Shown: positions 11,277 through 61,263, counted from the first letter of the stretch. The stretch is 64,000 nt of DNA from a virus (IMGVR_UViG_3300028666_000026:1-64000); one strand, 5' to 3'. Notes: generated from the sequence alone by a model not told the origin. Translations and numbers: made by a program.

Positions 11277-11351
11277 TGGTGGACCCGCAGGGATTCGAAC
11301 CCTGGACCGAAGGATTATGAGTCCTCTGCTCTACCGCTGAGCTACAGGTCC
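11277..11351 (-). tRNA. tRNA-Met (or Ile2) anticodon CAU, CCA encoded
   Basis: Cloverleaf read by hand: acceptor GGACCUG/CGGGUCC, D GCUC/GAGC, anticodon stem GAGGA/UCCUU loop CUCAUAA, T CAGGG-UUCGAAU-CCCUG, ACCA. Confidence 0.85.
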
Positions 11352-39903: not shown

Positions 39904-39976
39904 ACGAACGTAGCTCATTTGGTAGAGCACCAGGTTTTGGGCCTGGAGGCTGTCGGTCCGAGTCCGACCGTTCAAT
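39904..39976 (+). tRNA. tRNA-Gln (UUG) candidate
   Basis: D arm GCUC-AUUUGGUA-GAGC, anticodon stem CCAGG/CCUGG loop UUUUGGG, T arm GUCGG-UCCGAGU-CCGAC; acceptor has mismatches at 1-72/2-71. Confidence 0.4.
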
Positions 39977-39997
39977 GATTGAACCGCTACACTGGGA

Positions 39998-40069
39998 GTT
40001 GACATAGCTCAGAGGCAGAGCAGTTGATTCGTAATCAATAGGCCGGTGGTTCGATCCCACCTGTTGACT
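39998..40069 (+). tRNA. tRNA-Thr (CGU)
   Basis: Acceptor GUUGACA/UGUUGAC, D GCUC/GAGC, anticodon stem GUUGA/UCAAU loop UUCGUAA, T GGUGG-UUCGAUC-CCACC. Confidence 0.75.
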
Positions 40070-40325
40070 CCCTTGATGCTTTGAAGGCCGGACTGAGGAT
40101 TCGGAATAGCCTAGCCGTTTAACGTGAACGGCAAACAACGTGCGCAGAGGTTATGTGCCTCCTAAGCGTGGCGTTCCTTCAAAGCATCTTCAAGATTGAG
40201 TGTCCTAGTCCGAAACAGACTAGGTGGTGGAGGCGAGCCGTGAAAGGTTTGCCCCGTAAGTTAAGCATGTCAACACTGTGGTAGAAGCAATTTCGGACGT
40301 GGGTTCAATTCCCACCGAGTCCACC
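40070..40325 (+). ncRNA. tmRNA(ssrA)-like element with 3' tRNA-like domain and CCA
   Basis: 3' end AAUUUCGGACGUGGGUUCAAUUCCCACCGAGUCCACCA nearly identical in pattern to bacterial tmRNA 3' end; GGAUUCG near 5'; GCAAACAACG resembles resume-codon context. Confidence 0.4.
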
Positions 40326-40342
40326 AAAGAGTTCTGTGAGGA

Positions 40343-40585
40343 ATGACAATAACAGCGAAAGCTGATGGGCTGCGACTAAAGCGCGCAGACTATGCGAGCA
40401 GAACTCTTTTGTGGGCTCGTTCCGGTTTCGACGGAATTGACGAGCTACAGCTTCATGTCGGGATTGATGCTCACCGTAACGAGAATCAGCATAAAACTGC
40501 CACTCAACGTGTCAGCGAGAAGCGCAACAACGTGCTCGCCTTCCCTGTGAAGCGTCACGCTGCTGAACTTCAAATGGCTGCTTAA
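40343..40585 (+). CDS. hypothetical protein (first rightward gene)
   Basis: 80 aa, RBS GAGGA. Confidence 0.4.
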   Translation: MTITAKADGLRLKRADYASRTLLWARSGFDGIDELQLHVGIDAHRNENQHKTATQRVSEKRNNVLAFPVKRHAAELQMAA

Positions 40586-40922
40586 TCGCAGTCGGGGCAA
40601 GCCGGGTGATGCCTAGCAACAGAAGAGACCGGCAAGATAAGCGTGGCTGCTACGAGCCAGCCGGTGACTCTGGGATAAGCAGAGTGGACACAAGCAACAG
40701 CCGGAACAGCGTAGCCAGACGAGAGGTCCGACGTCTCGTCATTGAAGGGCATTTGAACTTTGTCTTTGAGTGCCCTTCGAGTTTGGGGAGCTGCAAACAC
40801 AGTAGCACAACACAGGCGTCTTAAGAGACACCTCGCGGCATGCGCCGCAATACGTTGTGCTGGGCAGCCATGGCGTGACGGGCAAGCATGCTGAGTCGCA
40901 CTTACCAATGGAGATAACTAAC

Positions 40923-47215: not shown

Positions 47216-47999
47216 AACAGAAGCTGACCGCCAAGCGCGGTACACGTGGGACGCCACCTCTGGCGTAGAAGTGGTACGGCGTGGGGCTGGCAAGTCCATA
47301 GACCTGGAGAGCGTTATGTCCGCGGAAGCCAACGACGCAGTACTTCCTGTGCCAGTGTTGGGACGAGACGCGCTCCCACGCAGTGAAGCGATGAACGTTA
47401 CCAAATATAAAGGGTACGACATTTGGCCTCAGTACAGCGGTGGCAGTTTGAAATTTTTCTGGTACCGTCCCGGTGTGAAGAAGGCGCAGGGCTGGGCAAA
47501 GGATGAAGATTGGGCCAAGTTCTACATAGACCTGGATATAAAGAATAAGCGCGGTGCCAAAGACATGCGCACCGTTCCGTCCAAGCTGACCAACGCCTGC
47601 ATTTACTGCAACAACGACCATGATCCTGCCATTCAGTGCCGCAACACTGCCGGCAACCCAGCCAATGTGCAGGCCGGCAAGGTCAAGCCGGTGCCAATGC
47701 CAGGTATTGTGCGCAAGAAGGCTGTGAAGGTGGGGGACGAGGCTACTTCACGATGCAGAGAGTGCGGGCAGCGTATACCAGTTAAATCTGGTGAGCGTGG
47801 TTTGCAATTTTATGTTGAGCATAACAGGTTAGATGGCGTCATTTGTCCTAAAAGTGGTACGTGGGCTGCACAATATACTAAGGACTCAGCCAGAGCAAAG
47901 GACGTAACTTGCCGCAATTGTGGCGGAGAGCTTGCTGCTAAGGGACCGGGTACTGGGCTGTGCACTAGGTGTGCTAAGGACGTAGTACAGCCCGTATGA
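47196..47999 (+). CDS. hypothetical Cys-rich protein
   Basis: 267 aa with several CxxC pairs. Confidence 0.5.
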   Translation: MTMSRFETEADRQARYTWDATSGVEVVRRGAGKSIDLESVMSAEANDAVLPVPVLGRDALPRSEAMNVTKYKGYDIWPQYSGGSLKFFWYRPGVKKAQGWAKDEDWAKFYIDLDIKNKRGAKDMRTVPSKLTNACIYCNNDHDPAIQCRNTAGNPANVQAGKVKPVPMPGIVRKKAVKVGDEATSRCRECGQRIPVKSGERGLQFYVEHNRLDGVICPKSGTWAAQYTKDSARAKDVTCRNCGGELAAKGPGTGLCTRCAKDVVQPV

Positions 48000-48856
48000 C
48001 CGCCAAGCAACCACCCGCCTTCGGTCCCACGCAGCGCCTACAGCACGAGTATGAGCGCGGTATGCGTGAAGTTGTCAAGCGTATTCTCGCGCCCAAGCTG
48101 CCCAGTCAAACGTTCGATCAGTGGGTGGCCGAGTTAGCCGAGCGCTCGCGCAGGCCGGACGTGCAGTCGGCTTCTGAATTTCTTGCCCGTAAAATGTTCC
48201 AGTGGGCAAACATCACTAATGCTCGCACGTGGCGAGAAGCCGCTAGTAAAAGCCAGCAGTCGCGCAAGCTGTTCAAGCTGCTCACGGCTGAGATGCGGAC
48301 AGCTACGGGCGCGCGTGTTACCGGCCTGGTGCGCGAGAACGCCAAGCTGATCAGCTCGCTGCCCATTGTTGCAGCGCAGACGCTGACGGACGAGATACTC
48401 AAGGCGCAGCAGTCAGGGGCGCGTGCCGACACCTTGGCCAAGATGATGCGTACCCGGTTCCCTGAGTTGATGCGCAGCCGTGTGCACCTTATCGCTAGGA
48501 CGGAAACCGCCAAGGCTAGCACCGCATTGACTGAGGCGCGCTGCGCAGAACTGAGCATCGATTGGTACGTGTGGGAGTCTTCAAAGGATCAACGTACGCG
48601 TAAGAGTCACAAGAATCTGCATGGTGTGCTCATTCCCTGGGCACATGCGCCGTCGCCGGAGGAGCTGGTGAGTTTGCCCAGTTACGGCCACTACCATGCC
48701 GGCACTACGTTCAATTGTCGCTGCACGCAAATTCCGTTGCTTACGTTCCAGGATGTTAGCTGGCCGCACCGTGTATATTGGGGCAACTCAGTAAGCCAGA
48801 TGACACTGCCCGAGTTCAAGCGCATAGCAACCGGCGTCGAGACACGCGCCGCATAA
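47996..48856 (+). CDS. head morphogenesis protein (Mu F / SPP1 gp7 family)
   Basis: ARTETAKA...SIDWYVW...RTRKSHKNLHG ... FNCRCT C-terminus. Confidence 0.8.
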   Translation: MTAKQPPAFGPTQRLQHEYERGMREVVKRILAPKLPSQTFDQWVAELAERSRRPDVQSASEFLARKMFQWANITNARTWREAASKSQQSRKLFKLLTAEMRTATGARVTGLVRENAKLISSLPIVAAQTLTDEILKAQQSGARADTLAKMMRTRFPELMRSRVHLIARTETAKASTALTEARCAELSIDWYVWESSKDQRTRKSHKNLHGVLIPWAHAPSPEELVSLPSYGHYHAGTTFNCRCTQIPLLTFQDVSWPHRVYWGNSVSQMTLPEFKRIATGVETRAA

Positions 48857-50264: not shown

Positions 50265-52277
50265 ATGGCTCCACGGCCACGCAAGAATTTCACTAAGCGC
50301 ACCCGGCCCACGTTCGGCGAGGCTGCACTAGGGCTGCAAGGCAAGACGCCCTTTGCCATGGGCAAAGACTTTTACACCAATGCGGCAGCACGCATGGGTT
50401 GGGGTACGCCATCGCTTAACGAATCTGGTGGCTACGAGATGGTGAGGTTCAGCTATAACTATTGGGAACTCATCACTCTGTTTCGCAATCACTGGATCAG
50501 CCGACGCATTGTTGAGACACCGGCCATTGACATGGTGCGTGCGTGGCCCAAGCTGACCAGTGATATCGACTCTGAAGACCTGACCAAAATCGACAGAGCC
50601 ATTCGTCGCACCAACACCAAAAACCAAGTGCAGACAGCCATAACCTGGGCGCGGCTGTTCGGCGGCGCTGGTGCATTAATCGTTATCGACGGGCAGGAGC
50701 GTGACCTGGAAGAGCCGTTGGACTTGGATTCTATCCCGCTAGGCGGCTACAAGGGTCTCAGCCCGTTTGATCGCTGGGCCGGGATCATGCCGGAAGGTGA
50801 AATATGCACTGACCCAAGCCGTCCGTTGGACTTCAACAAGCCTGAGCATTACACGGTCACCCCTACTGGCGGTGCTTCGTTCAAGGTGCACAGTAGTCGC
50901 GTTCTGCGGTTCACTGGCCCTGAAGTGCCTACGCCAGAGCGCGAGGCGCAGACGTGGTGGGGCATTTCGGTGCTGGAGCCCATCTACGAGGACATTCGCA
51001 AGTACGACTCTATGTCGTTCAACATTTTGTCGTTGACATATAGAGCCAACATTCTCGGCATGAAGTTCCCTGATCTTGCTTCGCTGCTTTCCGGACTAGG
51101 GTCTAGCCAGAAGGCGTCGCAAGGCTTCGAACAGCGTATGTACAACATCAATCATCTTATCAGCAATCAATCTTTGGTTCCGTTGCCGGCTGATGGCGGT
51201 ATTGAGTCCACGCAGTATTCGTTCGGCGGGTTGGCCGAGGTATTCCAGCTATTCCAGTTGGCGCTGAGCGGCGGCTCGCAGATTCCTGTTACACGCTTGT
51301 GGGGCCGTACATACACAGGTCTGGGCGCGGCGCGCGAACAGGACGAAATGCTGTACGAGGAAAAGATTGCCTCTGACCAAACTCAAGGCATGATACCGCA
51401 GTTAGAGAAGTTGTATCCTGTCATTTGCATGTCAGAGTTGGGCGAAGTGCCTGACGACCTTGATCTTCTCTGCCCTTCCATTCGTGTATTGGATGAGAAG
51501 GAAAAGGGTGAGATGGCCAAGAACATCGTGGACGTCAGCACTGTACTTCTCAACAGCGGCATCATGTCGCCGCGCATCGTAGCTCAAGAAGTGAAGCAGT
51601 CCAGCGACATCACCGGCTTCGGCACTAACTTGACCGACGAGTTCATCGAAACGCTCAGCGATAAGGTGCAGAGCGAAGGCGAAATGGGCGAAGGCATGTT
51701 CGGCGCTGAAGAAGGCGAACCTAACCTGTCGCCAGCTGCCAGTCCGCAGAAAGTGCTGCGCGAAGTAGGCAAGGAGAAGAAGGAAGAAGAGCCCGAGTCG
51801 AAACCTGACAAGGCCAAGGCGGCGGACTCCGACGGTCCAGGACACACTGTCAAGGTGCACGGACTTACTGCCGTGATTGAGACGCCCAAGGGTTACAGTC
51901 GTCATGGCAAGACGCCGGATGGGAAGTCGTGGCACCAGGTTATGCCGTATCACTACGGCTACCTTCGTGGCATTGAGGGCGCAGACGGTGACAGCCTAGA
52001 CGTTGCGCTGGGCGATGATCCTTCTTCTGACTGGGTGTACGTGTTCGACCAAGCGCACCTGCCGGGCGGTAAGAAGAGTGGCTTTGACGAGTCCAAGGTA
52101 TTCGCTAACTTCTCGAGTCAGGGTGACGCACTGCGCGCTTTCAAGGCAGGGCATCACCAGGCTGAGCGAGTATTTATGGACTTCACGCCAATGCAGGCCA
52201 CTGACTTCAAGGCTTGGCTGGCTTCGGCTGACCTGCACAAGCCCTGTGGCATGGGTGGTGGGAGTTTGCCGGTATGA
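50265..52277 (+). CDS. portal protein with C-terminal extension
   Basis: N-terminal 480 aa portal-like (NAAARMGWG...YNYW..L..NHWISRRIV); acidic linker; C-terminal ~170 aa extra domain. Confidence 0.6.
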   Translation: MAPRPRKNFTKRTRPTFGEAALGLQGKTPFAMGKDFYTNAAARMGWGTPSLNESGGYEMVRFSYNYWELITLFRNHWISRRIVETPAIDMVRAWPKLTSDIDSEDLTKIDRAIRRTNTKNQVQTAITWARLFGGAGALIVIDGQERDLEEPLDLDSIPLGGYKGLSPFDRWAGIMPEGEICTDPSRPLDFNKPEHYTVTPTGGASFKVHSSRVLRFTGPEVPTPEREAQTWWGISVLEPIYEDIRKYDSMSFNILSLTYRANILGMKFPDLASLLSGLGSSQKASQGFEQRMYNINHLISNQSLVPLPADGGIESTQYSFGGLAEVFQLFQLALSGGSQIPVTRLWGRTYTGLGAAREQDEMLYEEKIASDQTQGMIPQLEKLYPVICMSELGEVPDDLDLLCPSIRVLDEKEKGEMAKNIVDVSTVLLNSGIMSPRIVAQEVKQSSDITGFGTNLTDEFIETLSDKVQSEGEMGEGMFGAEEGEPNLSPAASPQKVLREVGKEKKEEEPESKPDKAKAADSDGPGHTVKVHGLTAVIETPKGYSRHGKTPDGKSWHQVMPYHYGYLRGIEGADGDSLDVALGDDPSSDWVYVFDQAHLPGGKKSGFDESKVFANFSSQGDALRAFKAGHHQAERVFMDFTPMQATDFKAWLASADLHKPCGMGGGSLPV

Positions 52278-52996
52278 TCAAGGTCGGCTCGCACGTCAGA
52301 GTCAAGAAGTCGGGCAAAGCATACGTCGTAGTGTCGATCATCAAGGACGGCGTACTGCTGTGGTGTAGCTCCTCGCGCACTAACATTGTGCACACGTTTG
52401 AAGAAGTGGAGGAGCCGAAAGCCAGCGGCACACGCCCACTACCACGCACTGTAATGTCCAGCGTAGTTATCAGACCGCAGCGTTTTGGCGGCGGACATCT
52501 ACGCGGCGGCTTGGGCTCCGGTCCAACTACACAAGTGGAATTGAGTAACCAGGTGCAGGGCGTTCTGCATCCTGTCAATCTGCCACCAACTACTGACGCA
52601 GCCTTGGGCGGCGCGCAAGTTGACGGTGTAACCATTCAGGCTTCGCCCAGCGGCGTTATCAGCACGGCGGCGTTGACGCTCACCACAGGCGGCACCATCA
52701 TATCGCCCGTTGTGCCCATCAACGTTGTAGTGTGGCGAGCTCCATTCGCAGCCACAGTGACTAACGTGCTGGGTTACGTGGGCGGCGCAAGCGGGTCCGT
52801 GATCAATGCGCGCAAGAATGGCGCTTTGAAATTACTCGCCAGTGATTTGCTACTGACTTCGGCCAACACTTGGATGGACGGCGGTGCGGTGCAGAATGTC
52901 AACATGGTAGCTGGCGACAGTCTGGAAATTATGGTGATAAGTCTCGGCGGCTTCCCTACGGAGATTGCCGTCGAAGTTCAATGTTTGCGAGGATAA
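52274..52996 (+). CDS. hypothetical structural protein
   Basis: 240 aa, ATGA coupling to portal. Confidence 0.45.
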   Translation: MIKVGSHVRVKKSGKAYVVVSIIKDGVLLWCSSSRTNIVHTFEEVEEPKASGTRPLPRTVMSSVVIRPQRFGGGHLRGGLGSGPTTQVELSNQVQGVLHPVNLPPTTDAALGGAQVDGVTIQASPSGVISTAALTLTTGGTIISPVVPINVVVWRAPFAATVTNVLGYVGGASGSVINARKNGALKLLASDLLLTSANTWMDGGAVQNVNMVAGDSLEIMVISLGGFPTEIAVEVQCLRG

Positions 52997-52999
52997 CGC

Positions 53000-53384
53000 T
53001 GTGAGCACAATTCTGACACCAGCAGCAGTACAAGCCGACTTGCTGCCAGACTCCAGAGCAGTCAATCCCAGGGCTGTAAAGCGCATGGTCATCAATGGCG
53101 TAGTAGCCAATTGGATGCCCATTTTCTGTGCTAACTGCGGCGCGGACGGCGGACATGTGCCAGAAGATAACTGCACATTCGCCTTTTACCTTTGTAATTC
53201 GTGCACGGAGAAGTGGGGCGCAATTGCCGGCACTTACTGCGTGCCAGACGACGTGTTCTGGGCCAGGTTACGTGAGGCTCAGCAGGAGAAGTACGGTCGC
53301 CAGCTCGGTACTTTCGAATTGTCGGAGGTAGCGAAAGACAACCATAACCCGATTGCGAAGCTGATTCGCGACGGCGCAGCGTAA
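53000..53384 (+). CDS. hypothetical Cys-rich protein
   Basis: GTG start after GAGGA; CANCG...C..FYLCNSC. Confidence 0.35.
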
Positions 53385-53396
53385 AGGAGAGATCGA

Positions 53397-53897
53397 ATGT
53401 TTGTCTACTCAGACGTTCCGGCGGCGACTGAATCGCTGACCACTAACACCTTCATGTACACCACCAGTTCTACTGGTGGCAATCTTACGGACGCCATGCG
53501 CTTCCTGACAGGCTCCACGCGTCAGGCTAGCATCCAGGCTATGTATCTCACGGGTCGCGGTGCCGGTTTGACGGCCATCAGCGGCATCAGCGCACGCATC
53601 ATCAGGCTGCAGACCGCCAGCACCACCGGCACTGCCGCCACGCCGCGTCCTCGTGACCTCACGGCACCGGCTTCTACTGTTACCATTTCCAGCTTACCCA
53701 CCATTGGGTCCGGCACGGTTTCTGTGCAGGTCGCAGTCGGCTGCGGCGCGGCTGGTCCTGGTGGTTGGGTTGCGCCTAACCCGGACAGCGTGATTGCGCT
53801 TTCGGCCAACGGCGGCATCAACGGAAACGCCGACTTGATTCTTGGGTCCAACACCGTGTCGCTCAACGTCGACGTCGACGTGGAGCACTTCGAGTAG
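53397..53897 (+). CDS. hypothetical structural protein
   Basis: 166 aa, T/S/G-rich. Confidence 0.45.
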   Translation: MFVYSDVPAATESLTTNTFMYTTSSTGGNLTDAMRFLTGSTRQASIQAMYLTGRGAGLTAISGISARIIRLQTASTTGTAATPRPRDLTAPASTVTISSLPTIGSGTVSVQVAVGCGAAGPGGWVAPNPDSVIALSANGGINGNADLILGSNTVSLNVDVDVEHFE

Positions 53898-54133: not shown

Positions 54134-55003
54134 ATGACCATTGCAAGTACAGCCGATTGGCCTGAAGTAAAGATGGATGTAGAGAAAATCCGTAAGGATC
54201 GTAGCTTGATGATAGCCACGCCTGCTTACGGTGGAAACATGCACGTCAACTACAGCTTGTCAGTGTGGGGTTTGGAAACGCTGCTGATGCACTGCGGCAT
54301 CGCACACAACCACATTGTCACGTACAACGATCCGTATGTCAGCTTCGCGCGCAATCGGCTAGTGCAGTTATTTCTGGAGAGTCCATACACGGACCTGCTA
54401 TTCATCGATGCAGACGTAGAGTTCAATCCGGTGGACGCGCTTGGGCTGATGCACTTTGACAAGGACGTTATTGGCGGCACGTACCCGCGCAAAGAGATAG
54501 ACTGGGCCACAGCCAAGCGTATCGCGCTGGAGAATCCTGACATTGACCCGGCTGACCTGGGTGTAGCGGCTGGAGTATTCACTACTGGCTCTATTGCTGA
54601 GAGTATGAAGCCCATGATCCCAACCAAAACGCAGGAACTGGCCACTGGGTTCATGCTCATCAAGCGCACTACGTTCGAGAAGGTTGCGCCATTCTGCCAG
54701 CGTTACAAGGCCATGTCGCTGGATCGCGCTAAGGATGGACAGCCATCTGCCACTGGTGTTAACGGCGATTGGATTACTGACTTCTTTCCGTCGGGTGTTA
54801 TCGGCGACGAGTGGGTTGGTGACGACTTCCAGTTCTGCCGCAAGGTTACACAGGCCGGATTGGACATTCATGTGTGTGGTTGGATGCAGATAGCACACCA
54901 TGGCACGCACCGCTTTCCAGGCAATATGCACATGGCTTGGCAGTATCGCCACAAGAATGAAATTGAGGCGGTGGCGGCGGAGAAGCTGACGGCAGAGGTG
55001 TAG
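54134..55003 (+). CDS. putative glycosyltransferase (DxD)
   Basis: MIATPAYGG ... LLFIDADVEF DxD-type motif. Confidence 0.45.
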   Translation: MTIASTADWPEVKMDVEKIRKDRSLMIATPAYGGNMHVNYSLSVWGLETLLMHCGIAHNHIVTYNDPYVSFARNRLVQLFLESPYTDLLFIDADVEFNPVDALGLMHFDKDVIGGTYPRKEIDWATAKRIALENPDIDPADLGVAAGVFTTGSIAESMKPMIPTKTQELATGFMLIKRTTFEKVAPFCQRYKAMSLDRAKDGQPSATGVNGDWITDFFPSGVIGDEWVGDDFQFCRKVTQAGLDIHVCGWMQIAHHGTHRFPGNMHMAWQYRHKNEIEAVAAEKLTAEV

Positions 55004-55006
55004 CAA

Positions 55007-55693
55007 ATGGGTATCTGGACGCACAGGCAGGGGATACAAGTATCAGGCGCATCCCCGCTCACCGTAACATTGCCCCTGGGCAACCCTCTTCTTGGCAGCA
55101 CTGTGGTTCTAGGGGCAATATTCGGTGCTATATCTGGTCTTTCCTTTCAGGATGCTAATAGCAACCCTTACACACTCACACCTCTGTCGCCCTTTACTGG
55201 TGCAAACGGCAACTGCGCCATAGCTTACCTGTTGTCTGCGCCTGCCAATGCAACTGCCGCGATAACGGCAACATGGACTGGCGGCGGTACCATAGTTTTG
55301 TTTGCCGATGAGTTTTTCCTGAGCGGCGGTACGGTTTCTTTCGACGGGGATGTGGCACTCTTCAATGGAACCTGTGTCAGCTTCACGGCAAACGCGCCAT
55401 CAATCAGTCCGGGCGCGTCTAGCGATCTATGCTACGCAGTAGCAACTGCTGGCGATGTTTTTACGAATCCAACCGTAGGACAGGCTCAGGGCGGCTGGAT
55501 TGGTTCCGCCGTCTCGGGCAATGGCGACTGCGCAGAGTATGCTTTGAACGTAAGTTCACCGCTGGCGCTGAACATGACCGACAGGACCAGCGGTGACACG
55601 TTTTCAGCGTTGATACTCGCACTAAAAGCACCCAATCCGAACTACGCCATTGAAGATTACGGACAGATGATTTCATTTGGAACACGGAGGTAG
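55007..55693 (+). CDS. hypothetical structural protein (fibre-like, G/S/T/A-rich)
   Basis: 228 aa; composition like N-domain of next gene. Confidence 0.45.
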   Translation: MGIWTHRQGIQVSGASPLTVTLPLGNPLLGSTVVLGAIFGAISGLSFQDANSNPYTLTPLSPFTGANGNCAIAYLLSAPANATAAITATWTGGGTIVLFADEFFLSGGTVSFDGDVALFNGTCVSFTANAPSISPGASSDLCYAVATAGDVFTNPTVGQAQGGWIGSAVSGNGDCAEYALNVSSPLALNMTDRTSGDTFSALILALKAPNPNYAIEDYGQMISFGTRR

Positions 55694-55714
55694 AAGTAAA
55701 GGAGGACGTGCCAG

Positions 55715-58700
55715 ATGGCAATTGCTTTTGTAGGCAGCGCGTTCTCCACTGGCAGCACCACGGCTGGTACCAGCAAGACAATCACATACAGTCCAGCCGC
55801 CAACAACACCCTTGTAGTATTCGGATTTGCTGCTGGCGCAGCAGTCACTAACGTCACCGACTCAGCTGGAAACAAGTATTATCAACGATCGAATCCGGCC
55901 ACTAACACCACTGAGGCCATGTGCTGGAGCACCAACGCTGGAGCGTCAATAGCCGGCACTAGCATAACCATAACGGTCACGTTCGGCTCGTCGGTACGTA
56001 ATACTTGTGTCATTGTTGAGTACTCGGGTGTCACCGGCATTGGAAAAGCCAACACCTCCACCGGCACTAATGCTGGACCCACCATAGCGTTGGGCATACA
56101 GAACGCCAACAACGTATTGGTGGCTGGACTTTCTGTAGAGAGTACTTCAACGTACTCGTTAACTACTGGAACAGCGCTGCGTACCAGTCAAGCTGGCGCT
56201 GGAGCTACCACGCCCGGTGGTTGCGTAATAGATAACACTAATGCTTCAGCAAATACCAGTGTTACATGCACAGCAGCCATCACTAGTGGTGCGTGGGCTG
56301 GTGCGGCGCTGGAGCTGACTACCGTCCAGGCTGCCATCGATAACGGTACTGACGACAACTGGTGGGGCGCTGTAAGGCTGCCATTAAGCAAGGCACTGGC
56401 GGCATCCATCACTGCCGTCTCGCTGCTCGGTTTCCCTTTACAGGGCGCAGCCGCTAAACTTGTCACGGACGAGGACCACTGGCAGAACCGTGTAGCGCCT
56501 GTCCCGCTTACACTGGCTTATCCGCAGCAGTTTTTATTTGACAGCGGAGATATTCCCACTGTCAGTGCGTTTCAGCCTGGCGAGGATTATTGGTCTGTAC
56601 AGTTTCAGTATGCAAATCAGCCTAGTGTAGTTCTAGGATTTCCTGCTCAGGGCGCTGCCGCTGCGCTTGTTACTGACGAAGATGACTGGGAGAATCCAGC
56701 ACCTCCACCGTCGCCGCCGACTAATTTTGTATACATTCCCGTAGACGGGGATTTCGCGCCATTCATCGTCGCCTTTACACCAGACGAGGATATCTACCAA
56801 AGCCAGGTAGCACCTATTGTGTCATCAATGGGTGCTTTGTACTGGTATGACCAGGCCGGTCTAGGCTTCACCACGCTGGAAGAGGACTTTTGGTTAGGCC
56901 CTCCTCCGCCGGTTACACCGTGGTCAGCAAATGCGTTGTACTGGTTTGACACTGGTGGTCTAGACTTCACCACGCTGGACGATGACTATTGGCTGAATCA
57001 AACGTCGCCCACGCAACTGACACTGGGATACCCGTCGCCATGGTTCGACCAAGGCGACATTGACTTCACTCAGCAAGACGAAGAGCTGTGGCAGAATCAA
57101 GTTGTACCGCAGCAGTTAGCATTTCAGTACCCAGCACCATGGCAGTTTGAGCAGGACGAACCTAGCACGCTTAGTGGTCAGCCTGACGAGGATTTCTGGT
57201 CTGTATATGCACCAGCTTGGCTCACTACGCCGCCGTTACAGGCTGTACGTGACGACGAAGTATGGACTACGCAGATTGTTGAGGAAGAACTGTGGCGCGG
57301 TGGTTTGCCGACGCAGCTCGCACTCAACTACCTGGCTCCTTGGTTCGACCAGGGCGACGTTGACTTCACGCAGCAAGATGAGGAGTTTTGGCAGAATCAA
57401 GCTGCACCTGCGCAGTTAGTATTTCAGTATCCTGCGCCGTGGCAGTTTGAGCAGCATGAACCTGGTACACTTAGTGGACAACCTGACGAGGACTTCTGGC
57501 AGAACTATGTAGCACCTGTGCAGTTGGTGTTGCAGTGGCCGCAGCCATACATCTTCGATCAGGATGAGCAAGACTTCGGGCTACATGGACAGCCGGACGA
57601 GGACTTCTGGGTAAATGGCGTAGCACCTACGCAGTTAGTATTCCAATACCCAGCGCCTTGGCAGTTCGAGCAGAATGATCCGTCTACACTTAGTGGTCAA
57701 CCTGATGAAGATTTCTGGATAAGCAATTTAGCGCCTGTCCAGGCCGCGTTCGGTTATCTGTCTCCATGGCTTGATCAGGGCGACGTTGACTTCACGCAGC
57801 AAGATGAAGAGCTGTGGCAGAATAGAGTACCTGCACAGCAACTTACATTGGCCTATCCAGCGCCTTGGTTCGATCAAGGCGACGTAGATTTCGTACAACA
57901 AGACGAAGACTTCTGGGTCAGCAGCATAACGCCTATACAGTTGGCGTTCCAGTATCTTGCTCCATGGCAATTCGAGCAGGACGATCCTTCGACACTGAGT
58001 GGTCAACCTGACGAAGACCTATGGATAAACAGCGTTGTACCTGTGCAGCTTACGCTGCGCTACCCGACGCCTTGGCAGTTTGAACAAAACGAGCAGGCAA
58101 CACTTGCCGGCCAGCCGGACGAAGACTTCTGGCTGAACTTCGTCGCGCCGGTTCAAGCCACGCTTGTCTACCCGGCACCATGGCAGTTTGATCAGGATGA
58201 ATCGCCCACGCTGGAAGGTCAGCTGGACGAAGACTTCTGGGTAAATCGCGTACAGCCGCAGCAGCTAGCGTTCCAGTGGCTGCAGTTTACAGAGCAAGCT
58301 GAGTTGTGCTTTGCCACTGTCGATGATGACTTCTGGCAAAACACAGTACTGCCGACACAGCTAGCATTCGTCTATCCAGCACCGTGGCAGTTCGATCCGC
58401 AAGACACGGCGGTATTGAGCGGCCAACCTGACGAAGACTTCTGGGTCAGCGGTGTAGCACCAACGCAGCTGGCTTTTGCATATCCAGCACCGTGGCAATT
58501 CGAGCAGCACGATCCTGCAGGATCGCTAGTCGGCACGCTTGAAGAGGAGTTTTGGCGTAACGCTGTAGCACCTGTACAGGCATTGCTGGGGCCGTTATAT
58601 CTACCGGAACCGGAAGAGTTACCGGCTGGCCTCTTGCATTCTCCAGAGGAAGATTTCTGGGAGAATCAAGTGGCTCCAATTCAGCTTGCCTTCCAGTGGC

Positions 58701-59968
58701 CGCAGCCTTACACGTTTGAGCAAGATGATCCTGCGACACTTAGTGGACAACCTGACGAGGACCTTTGGCAGAACGCCGTAGCTCCAATTCAGCTTGCCTT
58801 CCAGTGGCCGCAGCCTTACATCTTCGATCAAGACGAGCAGGACTTCGGTCTATACGGACAGCCCAACGAAGACCTTTGGGTCAACAGCGTACTGCCTGTA
58901 CAGTCCACGTTCACACTGCCGGTACAGTGGCAGTTTGAACAGGGCGAGTCTGCTGGCAGTCTGTACGGCTTGCCAGAAGAGTTGTACTGGCTCAATCCTG
59001 TCGCTCCAGTGCGCAGTACGTTTGCGCCAATATACTTGCCGGAGCCGGAGGAATTGCCGGCTGGTAGTTTGTCTTCGACCACTAAAGACGAAGACTTCTG
59101 GATTAACAGTGTAGCGCCGACTCAGCAAACGATGGGTCGTCTCTACGCACCAGACCTGGATGATACACGTCCAATACCAGCGCAGACGTTCTTCCCAGAA
59201 GAAGATTTCTGGAAGAATGGTGTTGCTCCAGTACAGTTCACACTGCTTTATCCAGCGCCATGGGCTGGCGAGCAGCATGATACTGCGAAGTTAAGCGGTG
59301 TACCAGAAGAAGATTTCTGGAATAATGCTGTAGCTCCTGTACGGTCTACATTCACTTATCCATTACCATGGGTAGGCGAGCAGCACGACACTGCGAAGTT
59401 AAGCGGCGTGCCAGAAGGCACAGATACTTGGACGAATTACGTAGCGCCAGTACGGTCTGCGTTCTCGCCCTTGTTATTGTGGGAACAGAGTGACCTCGAC
59501 TTCAACACTGTCGAGGAAGATCTGTGGCTTAACAATGTCGCCGTTGTTCGGTCTACATTCCAGAAACTAGTATTCTGGGATCAGGGCGACGTAGGCTTCA
59601 CCATTGCCGAAGAAGAGTTTTGGCAGAATGGTGTCGCACCTGTGCAATCTACGTTTGGTAAGGCGTACTTACCAGACGTTGAGCAGCACACTGCGCAGCT
59701 CAGTGGTCAGCCGGACGAAGACTACTGGCAGAACTGGGCTAAGCCAACACAATTCACGTTGCTCTACCCAGCACCGTGGATTTCTGACACTCAAGAACCG
59801 CAGTTATTCGGCGGCGCTACGGATGACGATTACTGGATGCCTTTGCAAACAGTGGTTATGGCGACGCAGTCAACACAACTGCTGTTTTGGGACGTGGATG
59901 ATGGTGGCTTAGTACCGCCGCGTAATCCCACATCGTTCGTAACGTGGATATCTGGCAACTTTACATAG
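55715..59968 (+). CDS. giant tandem-repeat virion protein (1417 aa; fibre/adhesin candidate)
   Basis: N-terminal ~240-aa G/S/T/A domain then ~28 tandem ~40-aa units [DE]EDFW-N-VAP-QL-FQYPAPWQFEQ--P-TLSGQP. Confidence 0.8.
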   Translation: MAIAFVGSAFSTGSTTAGTSKTITYSPAANNTLVVFGFAAGAAVTNVTDSAGNKYYQRSNPATNTTEAMCWSTNAGASIAGTSITITVTFGSSVRNTCVIVEYSGVTGIGKANTSTGTNAGPTIALGIQNANNVLVAGLSVESTSTYSLTTGTALRTSQAGAGATTPGGCVIDNTNASANTSVTCTAAITSGAWAGAALELTTVQAAIDNGTDDNWWGAVRLPLSKALAASITAVSLLGFPLQGAAAKLVTDEDHWQNRVAPVPLTLAYPQQFLFDSGDIPTVSAFQPGEDYWSVQFQYANQPSVVLGFPAQGAAAALVTDEDDWENPAPPPSPPTNFVYIPVDGDFAPFIVAFTPDEDIYQSQVAPIVSSMGALYWYDQAGLGFTTLEEDFWLGPPPPVTPWSANALYWFDTGGLDFTTLDDDYWLNQTSPTQLTLGYPSPWFDQGDIDFTQQDEELWQNQVVPQQLAFQYPAPWQFEQDEPSTLSGQPDEDFWSVYAPAWLTTPPLQAVRDDEVWTTQIVEEELWRGGLPTQLALNYLAPWFDQGDVDFTQQDEEFWQNQAAPAQLVFQYPAPWQFEQHEPGTLSGQPDEDFWQNYVAPVQLVLQWPQPYIFDQDEQDFGLHGQPDEDFWVNGVAPTQLVFQYPAPWQFEQNDPSTLSGQPDEDFWISNLAPVQAAFGYLSPWLDQGDVDFTQQDEELWQNRVPAQQLTLAYPAPWFDQGDVDFVQQDEDFWVSSITPIQLAFQYLAPWQFEQDDPSTLSGQPDEDLWINSVVPVQLTLRYPTPWQFEQNEQATLAGQPDEDFWLNFVAPVQATLVYPAPWQFDQDESPTLEGQLDEDFWVNRVQPQQLAFQWLQFTEQAELCFATVDDDFWQNTVLPTQLAFVYPAPWQFDPQDTAVLSGQPDEDFWVSGVAPTQLAFAYPAPWQFEQHDPAGSLVGTLEEEFWRNAVAPVQALLGPLYLPEPEELPAGLLHSPEEDFWENQVAPIQLAFQWPQPYTFEQDDPATLSGQPDEDLWQNAVAPIQLAFQWPQPYIFDQDEQDFGLYGQPNEDLWVNSVLPVQSTFTLPVQWQFEQGESAGSLYGLPEELYWLNPVAPVRSTFAPIYLPEPEELPAGSLSSTTKDEDFWINSVAPTQQTMGRLYAPDLDDTRPIPAQTFFPEEDFWKNGVAPVQFTLLYPAPWAGEQHDTAKLSGVPEEDFWNNAVAPVRSTFTYPLPWVGEQHDTAKLSGVPEGTDTWTNYVAPVRSAFSPLLLWEQSDLDFNTVEEDLWLNNVAVVRSTFQKLVFWDQGDVGFTIAEEEFWQNGVAPVQSTFGKAYLPDVEQHTAQLSGQPDEDYWQNWAKPTQFTLLYPAPWISDTQEPQLFGGATDDDYWMPLQTVVMATQSTQLLFWDVDDGGLVPPRNPTSFVTWISGNFT
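56440..59900 (+). repeat. in-frame tandem DNA repeats (~120-126 bp units)
   Basis: Recurring cagcctgacgaggacttctgg / ccagcgccttggcagttcgagcag blocks. Confidence 0.8.
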
Positions 59969-59981
59969 AGCGGAGGGCGAA

Positions 59982-60950
59982 GTGATACCTAAGACGCAAA
60001 CCCGCGTCGGCAAGAATGGCAATTGCTTCGCCACTGCTTTGGCCAGCATACTCGAGACTAAGGTGCCAGAGTTTGGATTGGCCGGCAAGGAGGACGATGC
60101 TGTTTACTGGCAGCGCGTTGATTCCTGGCTGGCCAAGCAAGGCTTGCAGTATAAACAAGTACCTATCGGTGACACACAGCCCGTTGGCTTTCACACCATT
60201 GAGGGCGTGTCTCCACGCGGCGGTATGCATGCTTGCGTGGCTTACAATGGAAAACTTGTGCACGACCCACATCCTGTGAAGGATGATCCACGGCGCGGAC
60301 TAGTTAAGCCAATGTTTTACGGCCTATTATTACCATTGAAAGTAGCAGCCACCGATGTTCGTCCTGTAGCTACCACTGCGCAGCGCGAGAATTTGGAAGC
60401 CGCGTTACGCAGCTACGTGGACACGCTCAAGTATCCGCATGTGCAACGCGACAAGAAGTTGAAAGCCGAGCTGCTTCAAAACATACGAGAAATAGAAGAG
60501 ACGTTACGGCTGACCACTGGTGCTAAGGATCGCGCCGACATGATGCAGCTGCGGCGTAACACCCAGCGGCAAGGCGGACCGTTTCATGTGCAGCTTACAG
60601 AGCCTGACGGACACGAGCACACTACCTCGGTGCATGCGCTGAAGGCGTACGACTGGTACGGCGCTTCCAAAGCTATTCCAGGCGATGTACAGCCCGGTGG
60701 CGGTTGTGCGGCTTGTCTGGGCTCACATCCTAAGTTGAAACCGGGTAGCGCGTGTCCATACCGCAAGAAGACCACGGACGAAGTCCTTCCAGTCCCACCG
60801 CTCAGTGTTGGCGATACCATCAAGCTGGCTAACGGCAAGAAGTCCAAAGTACGTAAGATCACACTGGCCAAGAATCTGTTGGGCGAACCGGAGTGGCACG
60901 TACTGACAACATCGGGTGATGTAGTCACCATCAGAAGCAAGGAGAACTAA
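59982..60950 (+). CDS. putative papain-like cysteine peptidase
   Basis: GKNGNCFATALASIL (Cys) and GGMHACVAYNG (His) spacing; GTG start. Confidence 0.4.
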   Translation: MIPKTQTRVGKNGNCFATALASILETKVPEFGLAGKEDDAVYWQRVDSWLAKQGLQYKQVPIGDTQPVGFHTIEGVSPRGGMHACVAYNGKLVHDPHPVKDDPRRGLVKPMFYGLLLPLKVAATDVRPVATTAQRENLEAALRSYVDTLKYPHVQRDKKLKAELLQNIREIEETLRLTTGAKDRADMMQLRRNTQRQGGPFHVQLTEPDGHEHTTSVHALKAYDWYGASKAIPGDVQPGGGCAACLGSHPKLKPGSACPYRKKTTDEVLPVPPLSVGDTIKLANGKKSKVRKITLAKNLLGEPEWHVLTTSGDVVTIRSKEN

Positions 60951-60951
60951 T

Positions 60952-61263
60952 ATGGCAGCAATCGCACAATCAGTATTTACTCCAGACACCGCCGTAGGCA
61001 CCAGTGTTGGCTCCAGCAGTGCCGCCGTAGCTTTACCTGGCACACCTGCCAGTGATACAACGCTGCGTGTGGCCAATGTGGGCAACAATCCTATCTACGT
61101 CAAGCTCGGCACTACCAACGCCGTCACGGTGACCAACGGAACCGGCCTCTGCATTATGCCAGGCGACAAGGAATATCTGGGCATCGGGTCCAACACCTAC
61201 ATCGCCATGACCACCGGCACGCCTGGGACATCCTCCACGGTGAACTTAACAACAGGCTCGTAG
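60952..61263 (+). CDS. hypothetical small structural protein
   Basis: 103 aa, T/G-rich. Confidence 0.4.
   Translation: MAAIAQSVFTPDTAVGTSVGSSSAAVALPGTPASDTTLRVANVGNNPIYVKLGTTNAVTVTNGTGLCIMPGDKEYLGIGSNTYIAMTTGTPGTSSTVNLTTGS

Follow-up and report, generated by a model that had tools for sequence, protein, structure and literature searches.

A phage-restricted family of acidic, tryptophan-rich repeat proteins and its conserved gene module: a possible adhesive virion appendage

The window, as we call the whole 64,000-nucleotide (nt) stretch of viral DNA analysed here (IMGVR_UViG_3300028666_000026:1-64000), carries at 55715..59968 (+) an uninterrupted open reading frame (ORF) for a 1417-amino-acid (aa) protein dominated by acidic, tryptophan-containing repeats, hereafter the repeat protein. 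Its repeat family is restricted to phages and undescribed, with variable unit numbers (2-33) and end domains and a short N-terminal module that is kept. In addition, sequence comparisons place the gene in a conserved, undescribed module that also contains the genes designated F1, F2 and F3. We tentatively favour, at somewhat less than an even chance, the reading that the repeat protein is an accessory, surface-exposed virion fibre or 'hair', flexible or oligomeric, which would adhere multivalently. That it is a virion protein, as an earlier note on this DNA had proposed, is suggested by gene position and domain content.

The repeat protein is the product of a real late gene of a large, uncultured, soil-type phage, which is probably virulent. 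Direct reading of the sequence reveals a strong Shine-Dalgarno sequence (AAGGAGG, 55699..55705, +) ~9 nt before the ATG. The gene is separated by 13 nt from its downstream neighbour and by only 21 nt from the upstream one, and the shortness of the latter gap indicates that these two are probably co-transcribed. The uninterrupted ORF and its ribosome-binding signal bear out the gene proposed in the earlier note, as does the general layout of the product, in which a ~240-aa non-repeat N-region rich in Gly, Ser, Thr and Ala precedes an in-frame Trp/acidic array. Indeed, the motif [DE][DE][DE][FLYI]W was observed 26 times in aa 240-1417, as compared with a mean of 0.04 and a maximum of 1 in 2000 shuffles.

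From a unit table and alignment we counted 33 units in frame, each 32-37 aa long (aa 250-1403; 56462..59923, +), equivalent to a period of 96-111 bp, with anchor tryptophans running from W256 to W1374; the previous estimates of ~28 units, of ~40 aa per unit and of a DNA repeat of 120-126 bp are revised accordingly. The unit core, (Q)PDEDFWxNxVAP, is followed by an aromatic/proline stretch and then by a second acidic cluster, and the commonest spacings between tryptophans are 17, 36, 37 and 33. Most prominent are two types of unit, one of 36 aa conforming to QPDEDFWxNxVAPxQLxFQYPAPWQFEQxxPxTLSG and one of 33 aa ending in ...YPAPWFDQGDVDFT, and units u02, u03, u08 and u33 are degenerate. The region spanning aa 240-1417 (1178 residues) has an isoelectric point (pI) of 4.05 and contains 180 acidic (D+E) versus 22 basic (K+R) residues, 127 Pro and 127 Gln, together with 62 Trp, 81 Phe and 39 Tyr, the aromatics adding up to 15% of all residues. 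An 18-aa half-unit pseudo-repeat, as found in β-spirals, was tried and rejected, its in-register score (-11.6) being no better than that of shifted controls. Likewise, a glycine periodicity of 3, of the collagen-like or BclA-like G-X-Y kind, was not seen in the unit alignment, and the units, with their 32-37 aa and no sub-repeat, gave no Pfam match to the aromatic cell-wall or choline-binding repeats (CW_binding_1, ChW, GW).

Judged by its DNA, the array is ancient, and it is neither an assembly artefact nor prone to slippage. In the DNA, TRF detected a single array, with a period of 108 bp, 2.1 copies and 82% matches (59195..59417, +), and the repeats therefore had to be defined on the protein level. 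This one stretch corresponds to the youngest duplication, units 27 and 28, with a nucleotide identity of 0.78. Nucleotide identity between units has a median of 0.54 and reaches 0.78-0.81 in the best pairs, while the longest exact direct repeat within the array measures 40 bp (at 58673 and 58781). Within the 13-aa motif core, different codons are used at 54% of the identical residues, indicating that the amino-acid motif has been kept by purifying selection and that synonymous sites have been randomised. These results agree with the ancient amplification, rather than assembly error, that had been put forward before.

The repeats had not been recognised as any known motif in the earlier note, and they remained without a match in Pfam-A, PHROGs v4, NCBIfam, PDB sequences and 50,697 GenBank phage records; in the literature, no paper with PDEDFW was found, and a broader keyword search retrieved nothing relevant. 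Neither the N-domain nor the repeat region had a significant curated-family match (Pfam-A, PHROGs v4, NCBIfam 20), the searches returning a sub-threshold chance match in Pfam, one 14-residue match in PHROGs (E 0.002) and nothing in NCBIfam. A word-indexed protein search yielded 3 relatives only, wrongly suggesting a near-orphan, and was corrected by an exhaustive HMMER search of aa 240-1417 against 1.84 billion cluster representatives, which gave 226 proteins at E<=1e-3, of which 164 also passed E<=1e-10 and 68 passed E<=1e-30. The ten relatives that were examined are singleton metagenomic clusters, either nameless or called 'hypothetical protein'. The repeat is thus not unique to the window phage and its gene is part of a conserved multi-gene module, two findings that go beyond the earlier note. 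To trace the family in genomes, we used a degenerate DNA pattern for PDED[FY]WxNxVxP, which matched a single contig when 185,579 species genomes of bacteria and archaea were scanned but 15 stretches in 11 IMG/VR viral contigs, indicating that the repeat family is essentially phage-borne.

Comparison of the relatives showed which parts of the protein are kept and which vary. A hidden Markov model (HMM) of the unit detected 2-24 units per relative, the window protein topping the family with 33, and the family-wide unit consensus is GQPDEDFWQNPVAPVxxxLYQxLPLxDPEEIPAGSLxG. A module of the form DDxSDxWW(A/G)GxQxCFAxVALAA, which includes a hydrophobic helix, is present in 90 of 153 family proteins (median Kyte-Doolittle 19-residue mean, KD19, 1.71); it usually lies near the N-terminus, often after a start of the MxIRYxQxxDE... 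type. The C-termini of the relatives are diverse and have few Pfam matches (Laminin_G_3 and Kelch/β-propeller), and some relatives possess C-terminal domains of 185-353 aa, Kelch among them. Some phages contain 2-3 tandem genes after F1-F2 that cluster by BLAST with the repeat-protein family (L011 6140-8875 with L015 3-3761, L023 872-3133, L013 4076-6126 and L019 1548-3829, where L numbers designate loci), N-domain-only proteins being included in this cluster, whose members therefore need not all have repeats. Proteins P0001 and P0002 (1512 and 1093 aa, from 125-kb metagenomic contigs) have N-domains 47-54% identical to that of the window protein and are, like it, long and acidic with acidic-aromatic repeats; unlike it, they are built from other units (e.g. 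ETEQFDWGY..., EDEQVYPAPPF...), which the unit HMM of the window protein did not detect. As in the window, P0001 has an upstream neighbour of PHROG 1574, in locus L001. Genes of the Methyltransf_24 family lie just upstream of two family members (L001 8748-9281 and L005 289-1494), and a B12-binding radical SAM gene and more methyltransferase and glycosyltransferase genes lie downstream in L001 (23175-24539); from these neighbours, post-translational modification of the L001 and L005 family proteins is conceivable.

Outside the array, the repeat protein has three distinct parts. The N-domain (aa 1-205; 55715..56329, +), of the 'MAIxFV...' type, is predicted to be an all-β sandwich, the AlphaFold2 model from 29 homologues showing 15 strands, a predicted local distance difference test (pLDDT) of 88.2 and a predicted template modelling score (pTM) of 0.82. 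Foldseek retrieved 77 matches at E<=1e-3 from BFVD, the top ones with template modelling (TM) scores of 0.6-0.73 over 205-240 aligned columns. Many of these, from Mycobacterium and Gordonia phages, are labelled minor tail protein, labels that are depositor annotations and not structures, and the matches include one carbohydrate-binding CenC-like and one Ig-like domain-containing protein. Whole-domain superposition of predicted structures thus puts the N-domain in the fold class of actinophage minor tail proteins. By sequence, the N-domain family comprises ~28 proteins, some of which stand alone (229-268 aa); in others the domain is joined to F5/8 type C, He_PIG or Flg_new_2. The linker (aa 206-249; 56330..56461, +) contains DDNWWG and an Ala-rich hydrophobic helix (aa ~222-242) with a maximum KD19 of 1.51 at aa 224, and pLDDT stays under 50 from aa 210 on; the DDxSDxWW-type module of the relatives is its counterpart. 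A transmembrane signal anchor was considered for this helix and is weakened, as its KD19 of 1.51 is below the 1.6 criterion, and the helix of the relatives reaches 1.6-2.4 but is acidic on both flanks, where a signal anchor would be positively charged on one of them. Lastly, the C-terminal tail, NPTSFVTWISGNFT, which with the stop codon occupies 59924..59968 (+), has an FVTWI motif; F[VI]xW[IVT] is also present within the final 25 residues of 10 further members of the family, and most members with this motif end in D/E-rich tails, such as ...DDFG or ...EDDS.

BLAST comparison of the window genes with the fetched loci indicated that the repeat protein is accompanied by F1 and F2. In the homologue alignment F1 is a 127-aa zinc-ribbon protein (CxxC...CxxC) with the motif VPD(E/D)VFW (53001..53384, +); homologues with 41-61% identity are found at 10 other repeat-protein loci, their four cysteines and F86 being invariant and P82, D83 and W87 nearly so. 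F1 has no family match in Pfam, PHROGs or NCBIfam, and none in the GenBank phages. Among solved structures, its zinc ribbon (profile positions 29-63) resembles only the N-terminal zinc-binding domain of ClpX, and so weakly that the match is not significant (E 0.015-0.03) and a lead only; this ClpX domain binds short peptide tails. The conserved partner F2 (166 aa; 53397..53897, +) displays, in comparisons of homologues, the motifs GKGAGLTAISGI and GCGAAGPGGWVAPNPDS and invariant GAAGPGGWVAPNPDS-type loops, and its homologues at other repeat-protein loci are 35-91% identical. No match to F2 was found in Pfam, PHROGs, NCBIfam, PDB or the 50,697 GenBank phage records. A scan of IMG/VR with F2 recovered 51 loci, and in 46 of these loci, which were found via F2, F1 is directly upstream. 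A repeat protein of the PDEDFW type follows F1-F2 in ~20 of these loci; in most of the remaining ones with enough flank, its place is taken by an acidic (pI 4.1-4.5), Trp/Pro-rich protein, several with a DDxSDxWW-type motif near their start. Both F1 and F2 retain 35-91% identity across phages that have portals and capsid proteins of different families.

The third companion, F3 (228 aa; 55007..55693, +), which ends in AIEDYG...ISFG, is a stand-alone, remote paralogue of the N-domain. Comparison of the N-domain family with the F3 family by hhalign gave a probability of 95.9% (E 5e-9), a relationship for which pairwise BLASTP returned no match; F3 homologues occur in L006/L007 and L023. A single acidic-aromatic motif is found at the end of F3-type proteins and of N-domain proteins that stand alone, exemplified by ...QGDEDFWAGPNP...ITVWQ in the F3 of L006 and ...PPFEDDSYNG...NVSIW in P0005. 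Hence PDE(D/V)FW has a single copy in F1, a single C-terminal copy in at least one F3-type protein (that of L006) and as many as 33 copies in the repeat protein.

The window has two arms, with replication genes on the minus strand and, on the plus strand from ~40 kb, genes for terminase, MuF, portal, a protease/scaffold candidate and major capsid protein. In gene order, the structural arm has the terminase small and large subunits, an ADP-ribosyltransferase, MuF and a portal that bears an InPase domain at its C-terminus. Next come genes for a 240-aa protein, F1, F2, a 54-aa protein, a PHROG 1574 protein, F3 and the repeat protein, followed by those for proteins of 322, 103 and 523 aa, a Pa193_gp24-type protein, a 267-aa protein and the major capsid protein. 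As a rule the module is found next to portal, adaptor or capsid genes, and whenever head genes were recognised at F2 loci in local searches, they were within 10 kb of F2. The slot of the module varies among phages: it is bounded by Portal_Mu and a Mu-like protease in L006 and lies just after the capsid gene in L023, whereas in L077 the order is SU10_portal ... SU10_adaptor, F1, F2, repeat protein and then four large genes. In L002 it is the last element of a putative tail cluster, preceded by a weak Dit match and a possible tape-measure protein of 1603 aa; in L008 the repeat gene is the last before oppositely oriented genes; in L001 P0001 is encoded three small genes upstream of an endolysin gene; and in L009 a ribonucleotide reductase gene precedes the module. 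The neighbours in L006 include a Beta_helix protein and members of GH16 and GT9.

Several lines of evidence lead us to the surface-appendage reading. These are the minor-tail-protein fold class of the N-domain; the fusion of relatives to lectin-type domains; a fibre-like architecture, with a kept attachment module, variable units and exchangeable ends; strong mosaicism; carbohydrate-active neighbours; and places beside the portal/adaptor genes or at the ends of tail clusters. The mosaicism is clearest in UViG 3300032893_000009, where F2 is 91% and the PHROG 1574 gene 72% identical to those of the window, and the repeat protein (~1980 aa) has another N-domain, another C-terminus and ~450 extra residues. 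In such an appendage, the β-sandwich and/or the helix would fix the protein to the particle, at the portal/neck region or the capsid surface to judge by gene position, and may also oligomerise the protein, with the zinc-ribbon protein F1 and F2 acting as putative assembly or attachment factors that perhaps recognise PDE(D/V)FW. The array would project outward as a long, flexible, polyanionic filament of up to ~0.4 µm when fully extended; alternatively, its chains could intertwine into an oligomeric shaft, whose fold a prediction for the monomer would be unable to reach. The many aromatic/acidic motifs of the array would provide a weak, reversible and multivalent first contact with host envelope polysaccharide or with cation-bridged surfaces.

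A number of observations weigh against this reading. An AlphaFold2 monomer model of units 10-17, from an alignment of 34 in-register 8-unit segments of the window protein and its relatives, had a pLDDT of 41.6, a pTM of 0.16 and no secondary structure, so the β-solenoid or other fold that the earlier note had suggested looking for did not appear over eight units. The result fits a disordered chain, an obligate oligomer, or a fold missed by a monomer run on a shallow alignment, and on such models a regular shaft made by the repeat units is unproven. Low prediction confidence in a Pro-, Gln- and charge-rich sequence (127 Pro, 127 Gln and 180 D+E in 1178 residues) is as expected of a disordered array, but aromatic depletion is not observed, 15% aromatics being high for a disordered region. 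The net charge of the array, near -160, is unusual among known fibres. The window protein lacks a C-terminal binding domain, with just 14 residues after the last unit, and in the window, L006, L020/L024, L025 and several F2 loci the module is located between portal/MuF and protease/capsid genes and not in the tail cluster. Moreover, the minor-tail-protein labels come from depositors, and the roles of F1 and F2 we infer purely. Finally, megablast and tblastn searches of GenBank phages with the gene, its surroundings, F1 and F2 gave no match, and no cultured phage searched carries the family.

These points divide the roles that had been listed for the protein earlier. A fibre or adhesin is the best supported of them and an ejection protein is a live rival, whereas there is reason to doubt a long tail fibre proper: the gene is between portal and protease/scaffold genes rather than in a tail or baseplate location, no distal C-terminal receptor-binding domain is found and no fold is predicted for eight units, although some relatives, unlike the window gene, are in tail-like places (L002, L077). 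We also consider a more far-reaching version of the appendage, in which F1, F2, F3 and the repeat protein would be an unrecognised, horizontally mobile module, PDE(D/V)FW a docking signal for F2 or for a neck/capsid site, and the array a Velcro-like, disordered, polyanionic 'hair' constituting an unprecedented appendage. As a whole, we find this version doubtful.

The main rival, rather unlikely in our judgement, is that the repeat protein is a packaged internal head protein, loaded near the portal together with MuF, the ADP-ribosyltransferase and the InPase-fused portal and ejected unfolded with the DNA, to act as a decoy or DNA mimic or through a membrane-inserting helix. The location of the module would suit this role, as its neighbours are portal, MuF, protease or capsid genes here and in L006, L020/L024, L023, L025, L035, L042, L045, L046 and L075, and toxin-type domains are encoded beside and within the window portal gene. 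Predicted disorder of the monomer would ease passage through the tail channel, and extreme acidity would prevent sticking to the packaged DNA. Nevertheless, relatives and N-domain homologues bear extracellular modules (Laminin_G_3, Kelch, F5/8 type C, He_PIG) that would be odd inside a capsid, the N-domain fold resembles that of proteins annotated as tail proteins, other members sit at tail-like cluster ends or after an adaptor gene, and no capsid-targeting or protease-site signature was identified. Should the protein be ejected after all, the host would receive a disordered protein of unusual size, a case that is equally unexplored.

We hold it to be improbable that the repeat protein is a non-virion late product, an array of short linear motifs that would sponge up a host or phage partner through PDEDFW, with F1 and F3 binding the same partner (F2 or a host protein). 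The distribution of the motif, which is nearly invariant in its single copy in F1, occurs once at the C-terminus of the L006 F3 and is multiplied up to 33 times in the repeat protein, is compatible with this, as is the disorder predicted for the units; further, F1 and F2 are far more conserved than the surrounding head and tail genes, suggesting that they interact with the module proper rather than with any one capsid. Against it, ~15% aromatics is atypical of disordered decoys, the gene is always within structural late operons, and the fused lectin-like domains suggest a role at the surface, as in the appendage reading that we favour.

There is very little to commend a membrane protein held by a signal anchor at the envelope of the infected cell, or a polyprotein that the 322-aa neighbour would process into peptides of ~36 aa. 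Most members do have a hydrophobic segment (KD19 1.5-2.4) after the first acidic WW motif, a Gly is conserved before QPDEDFW, and a GNC...H...D pattern can be seen by eye in the 322-aa protein, but acidic residues precede as well as follow the helix and no N-terminal signal peptide is present, contrary to the rules of membrane insertion, and the 322-aa gene is neither conserved beside other members nor matched by any peptidase family.

The window derives from a short-read metagenome assembly (ENA contig k141_12260, 105,390 bp), and proteins identical to those of the neighbouring genes occur on JGI, Logan and ENA contigs of 105,391 and 105,390 bp. The exact 1417-aa sequence is present on its contig and absent from the protein collection, having given no self-match in the word-indexed search; this absence is a database gap and not biology. 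We virtually discount that the array is an assembly collapse or expansion, or the ORF no gene, for which the short-read origin and the missing protein might speak, given a longest exact internal repeat far shorter than the k-mer size of 141 to which the contig name points, a median nucleotide identity among units of just 54%, neighbouring genes found on contigs of 105,391 bp (JGI) and 105,390 bp (ENA/Logan), the strong Shine-Dalgarno sequence and a motif common to 226 relatives. Since the gain or loss of one unit would shift contig size by at least 96 bp, the near-identical lengths, along with units too diverged for slippage, also speak against the hypervariable repeat number between isolates that the earlier note had anticipated, although unit number does vary widely between family members.

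Several other features of the window deserve mention. The 240-aa protein between the portal gene and F1 (52274..52996, +) has no family match, and over the C-terminal 83 aa it shares 54% identity with the L020 gene directly upstream of F1. The 289-aa PHROG 1574 protein (54134..55003, +; phrog_1574, E 3.6e-34) is possibly glycosyltransferase-like, as read from a DxD-type motif; L025 has a 72% identical homologue in the same slot, and L001 has two copies, both upstream of P0001. Downstream of the repeat protein, gene calls and PHROGs define two genes (59982..61263, +), for a 322-aa protein (PHROG 5845) and a small, β-rich protein of 103 aa, neither of which is conserved in the other loci by BLAST; several other loci have a ~100-aa protein, Ig-like by eye, right after the repeat gene. 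Domain matches identify an ADP-ribosyltransferase toxin-type protein (PF03496; 45914-47215), MuF (47996-48856) and the portal with C-terminal InPase (PF18823; 50265-52277), all on the plus strand, which suggests that the phage may package effector domains in its head.

At the switch from the replication to the structural arm there is a permuted (two-piece) transfer-messenger RNA (tmRNA), at 40265-40585 (+), identified with Rfam RF04321 (77.8 bits versus a gathering threshold of 47, E 8e-15) and called by ARAGORN at 40234-40676, with a tag ending in ...AELQMAA; a phage tmRNA might be a hint at host lineage. Three transfer RNA (tRNA) genes are also present, for Met(cat) (11277-11351, -), Gln(ttg) (39904-39976, +) and Thr(cgt) (39997-40072, +), and as the repeat protein holds 131 Gln, the phage tRNA-Gln may matter for its translation.

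If the appendage reading is true, the repeat protein would embody a new building principle, in which a long, acidic, Trp/Pro-rich and probably flexible filament, with its own pair of helpers, replaces a rigid β-structured fibre. The family and its helpers are in no cultured phage searched and in no curated library, yet they are found in dozens of viral contigs with different head types, and thus represent a sizeable blind spot of phage annotation; the F1-F2 pair would then serve as a marker for host-interaction genes in uncultured phages.

Among known systems, actinophage minor tail proteins are closest to the N-domain: the BFVD predictions for Mycobacterium phages Tweety (A5YJY9), Hawkeye (X2KSL9) and Gaia (A0A068F3D1) have a fold like that of aa 1-205 (TM 0.6-0.73, probability 1.0, E 1e-9 to 1e-5). 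As in the window protein, the domain is N-terminal and followed by variable regions; in contrast to it, these proteins, at 13-23% identity, are without PDEDFW repeats. With the N-domain, tblastn found no cultured phage, and a solved structure or tested function of the domain was not found. Fibre shafts with variable repeats, such as the adenovirus triple β-spiral and phage tail-fibre shafts, share with the window protein an attachment end, variation in unit number and exchangeable distal domains, and we take FWxNPVAP to resemble the adenovirus fibre tail motif FNPVYPY. They differ from the array, for which neither β-spiral nor solenoid is predicted and which has no 18-aa half-unit symmetry and is extremely acidic, and also in that the globular domain of the window protein is N-terminal. 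Hair-like filaments of the BclA type combine collagen-like repeats with a C1q/TNF-like jelly-roll, and the window array lacks G-X-Y triplets.

Two further groups correspond to the two possible sides of the capsid. The head fibres of phi29 (gp8.5) and Hoc of T4 are dispensable adhesion structures of the capsid, which would suit a gene in the head-morphogenesis region, where the genes for gp8.5 and Hoc are presumably sited as well; there is no homology to the window protein, which is without a coiled coil or an Ig-like domain. Ejected proteins, such as P1 Dar, T4 Alt and internal proteins, and the N4 virion RNA polymerase, are large, encoded near head genes and pass the tail unfolded, and the window phage likewise has Alt-like ADP-ribosyltransferase and MuF genes near the repeat protein gene. 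They have no homology to the repeat protein, however, and are folded enzymes or basic proteins without lectin-type fusion partners.

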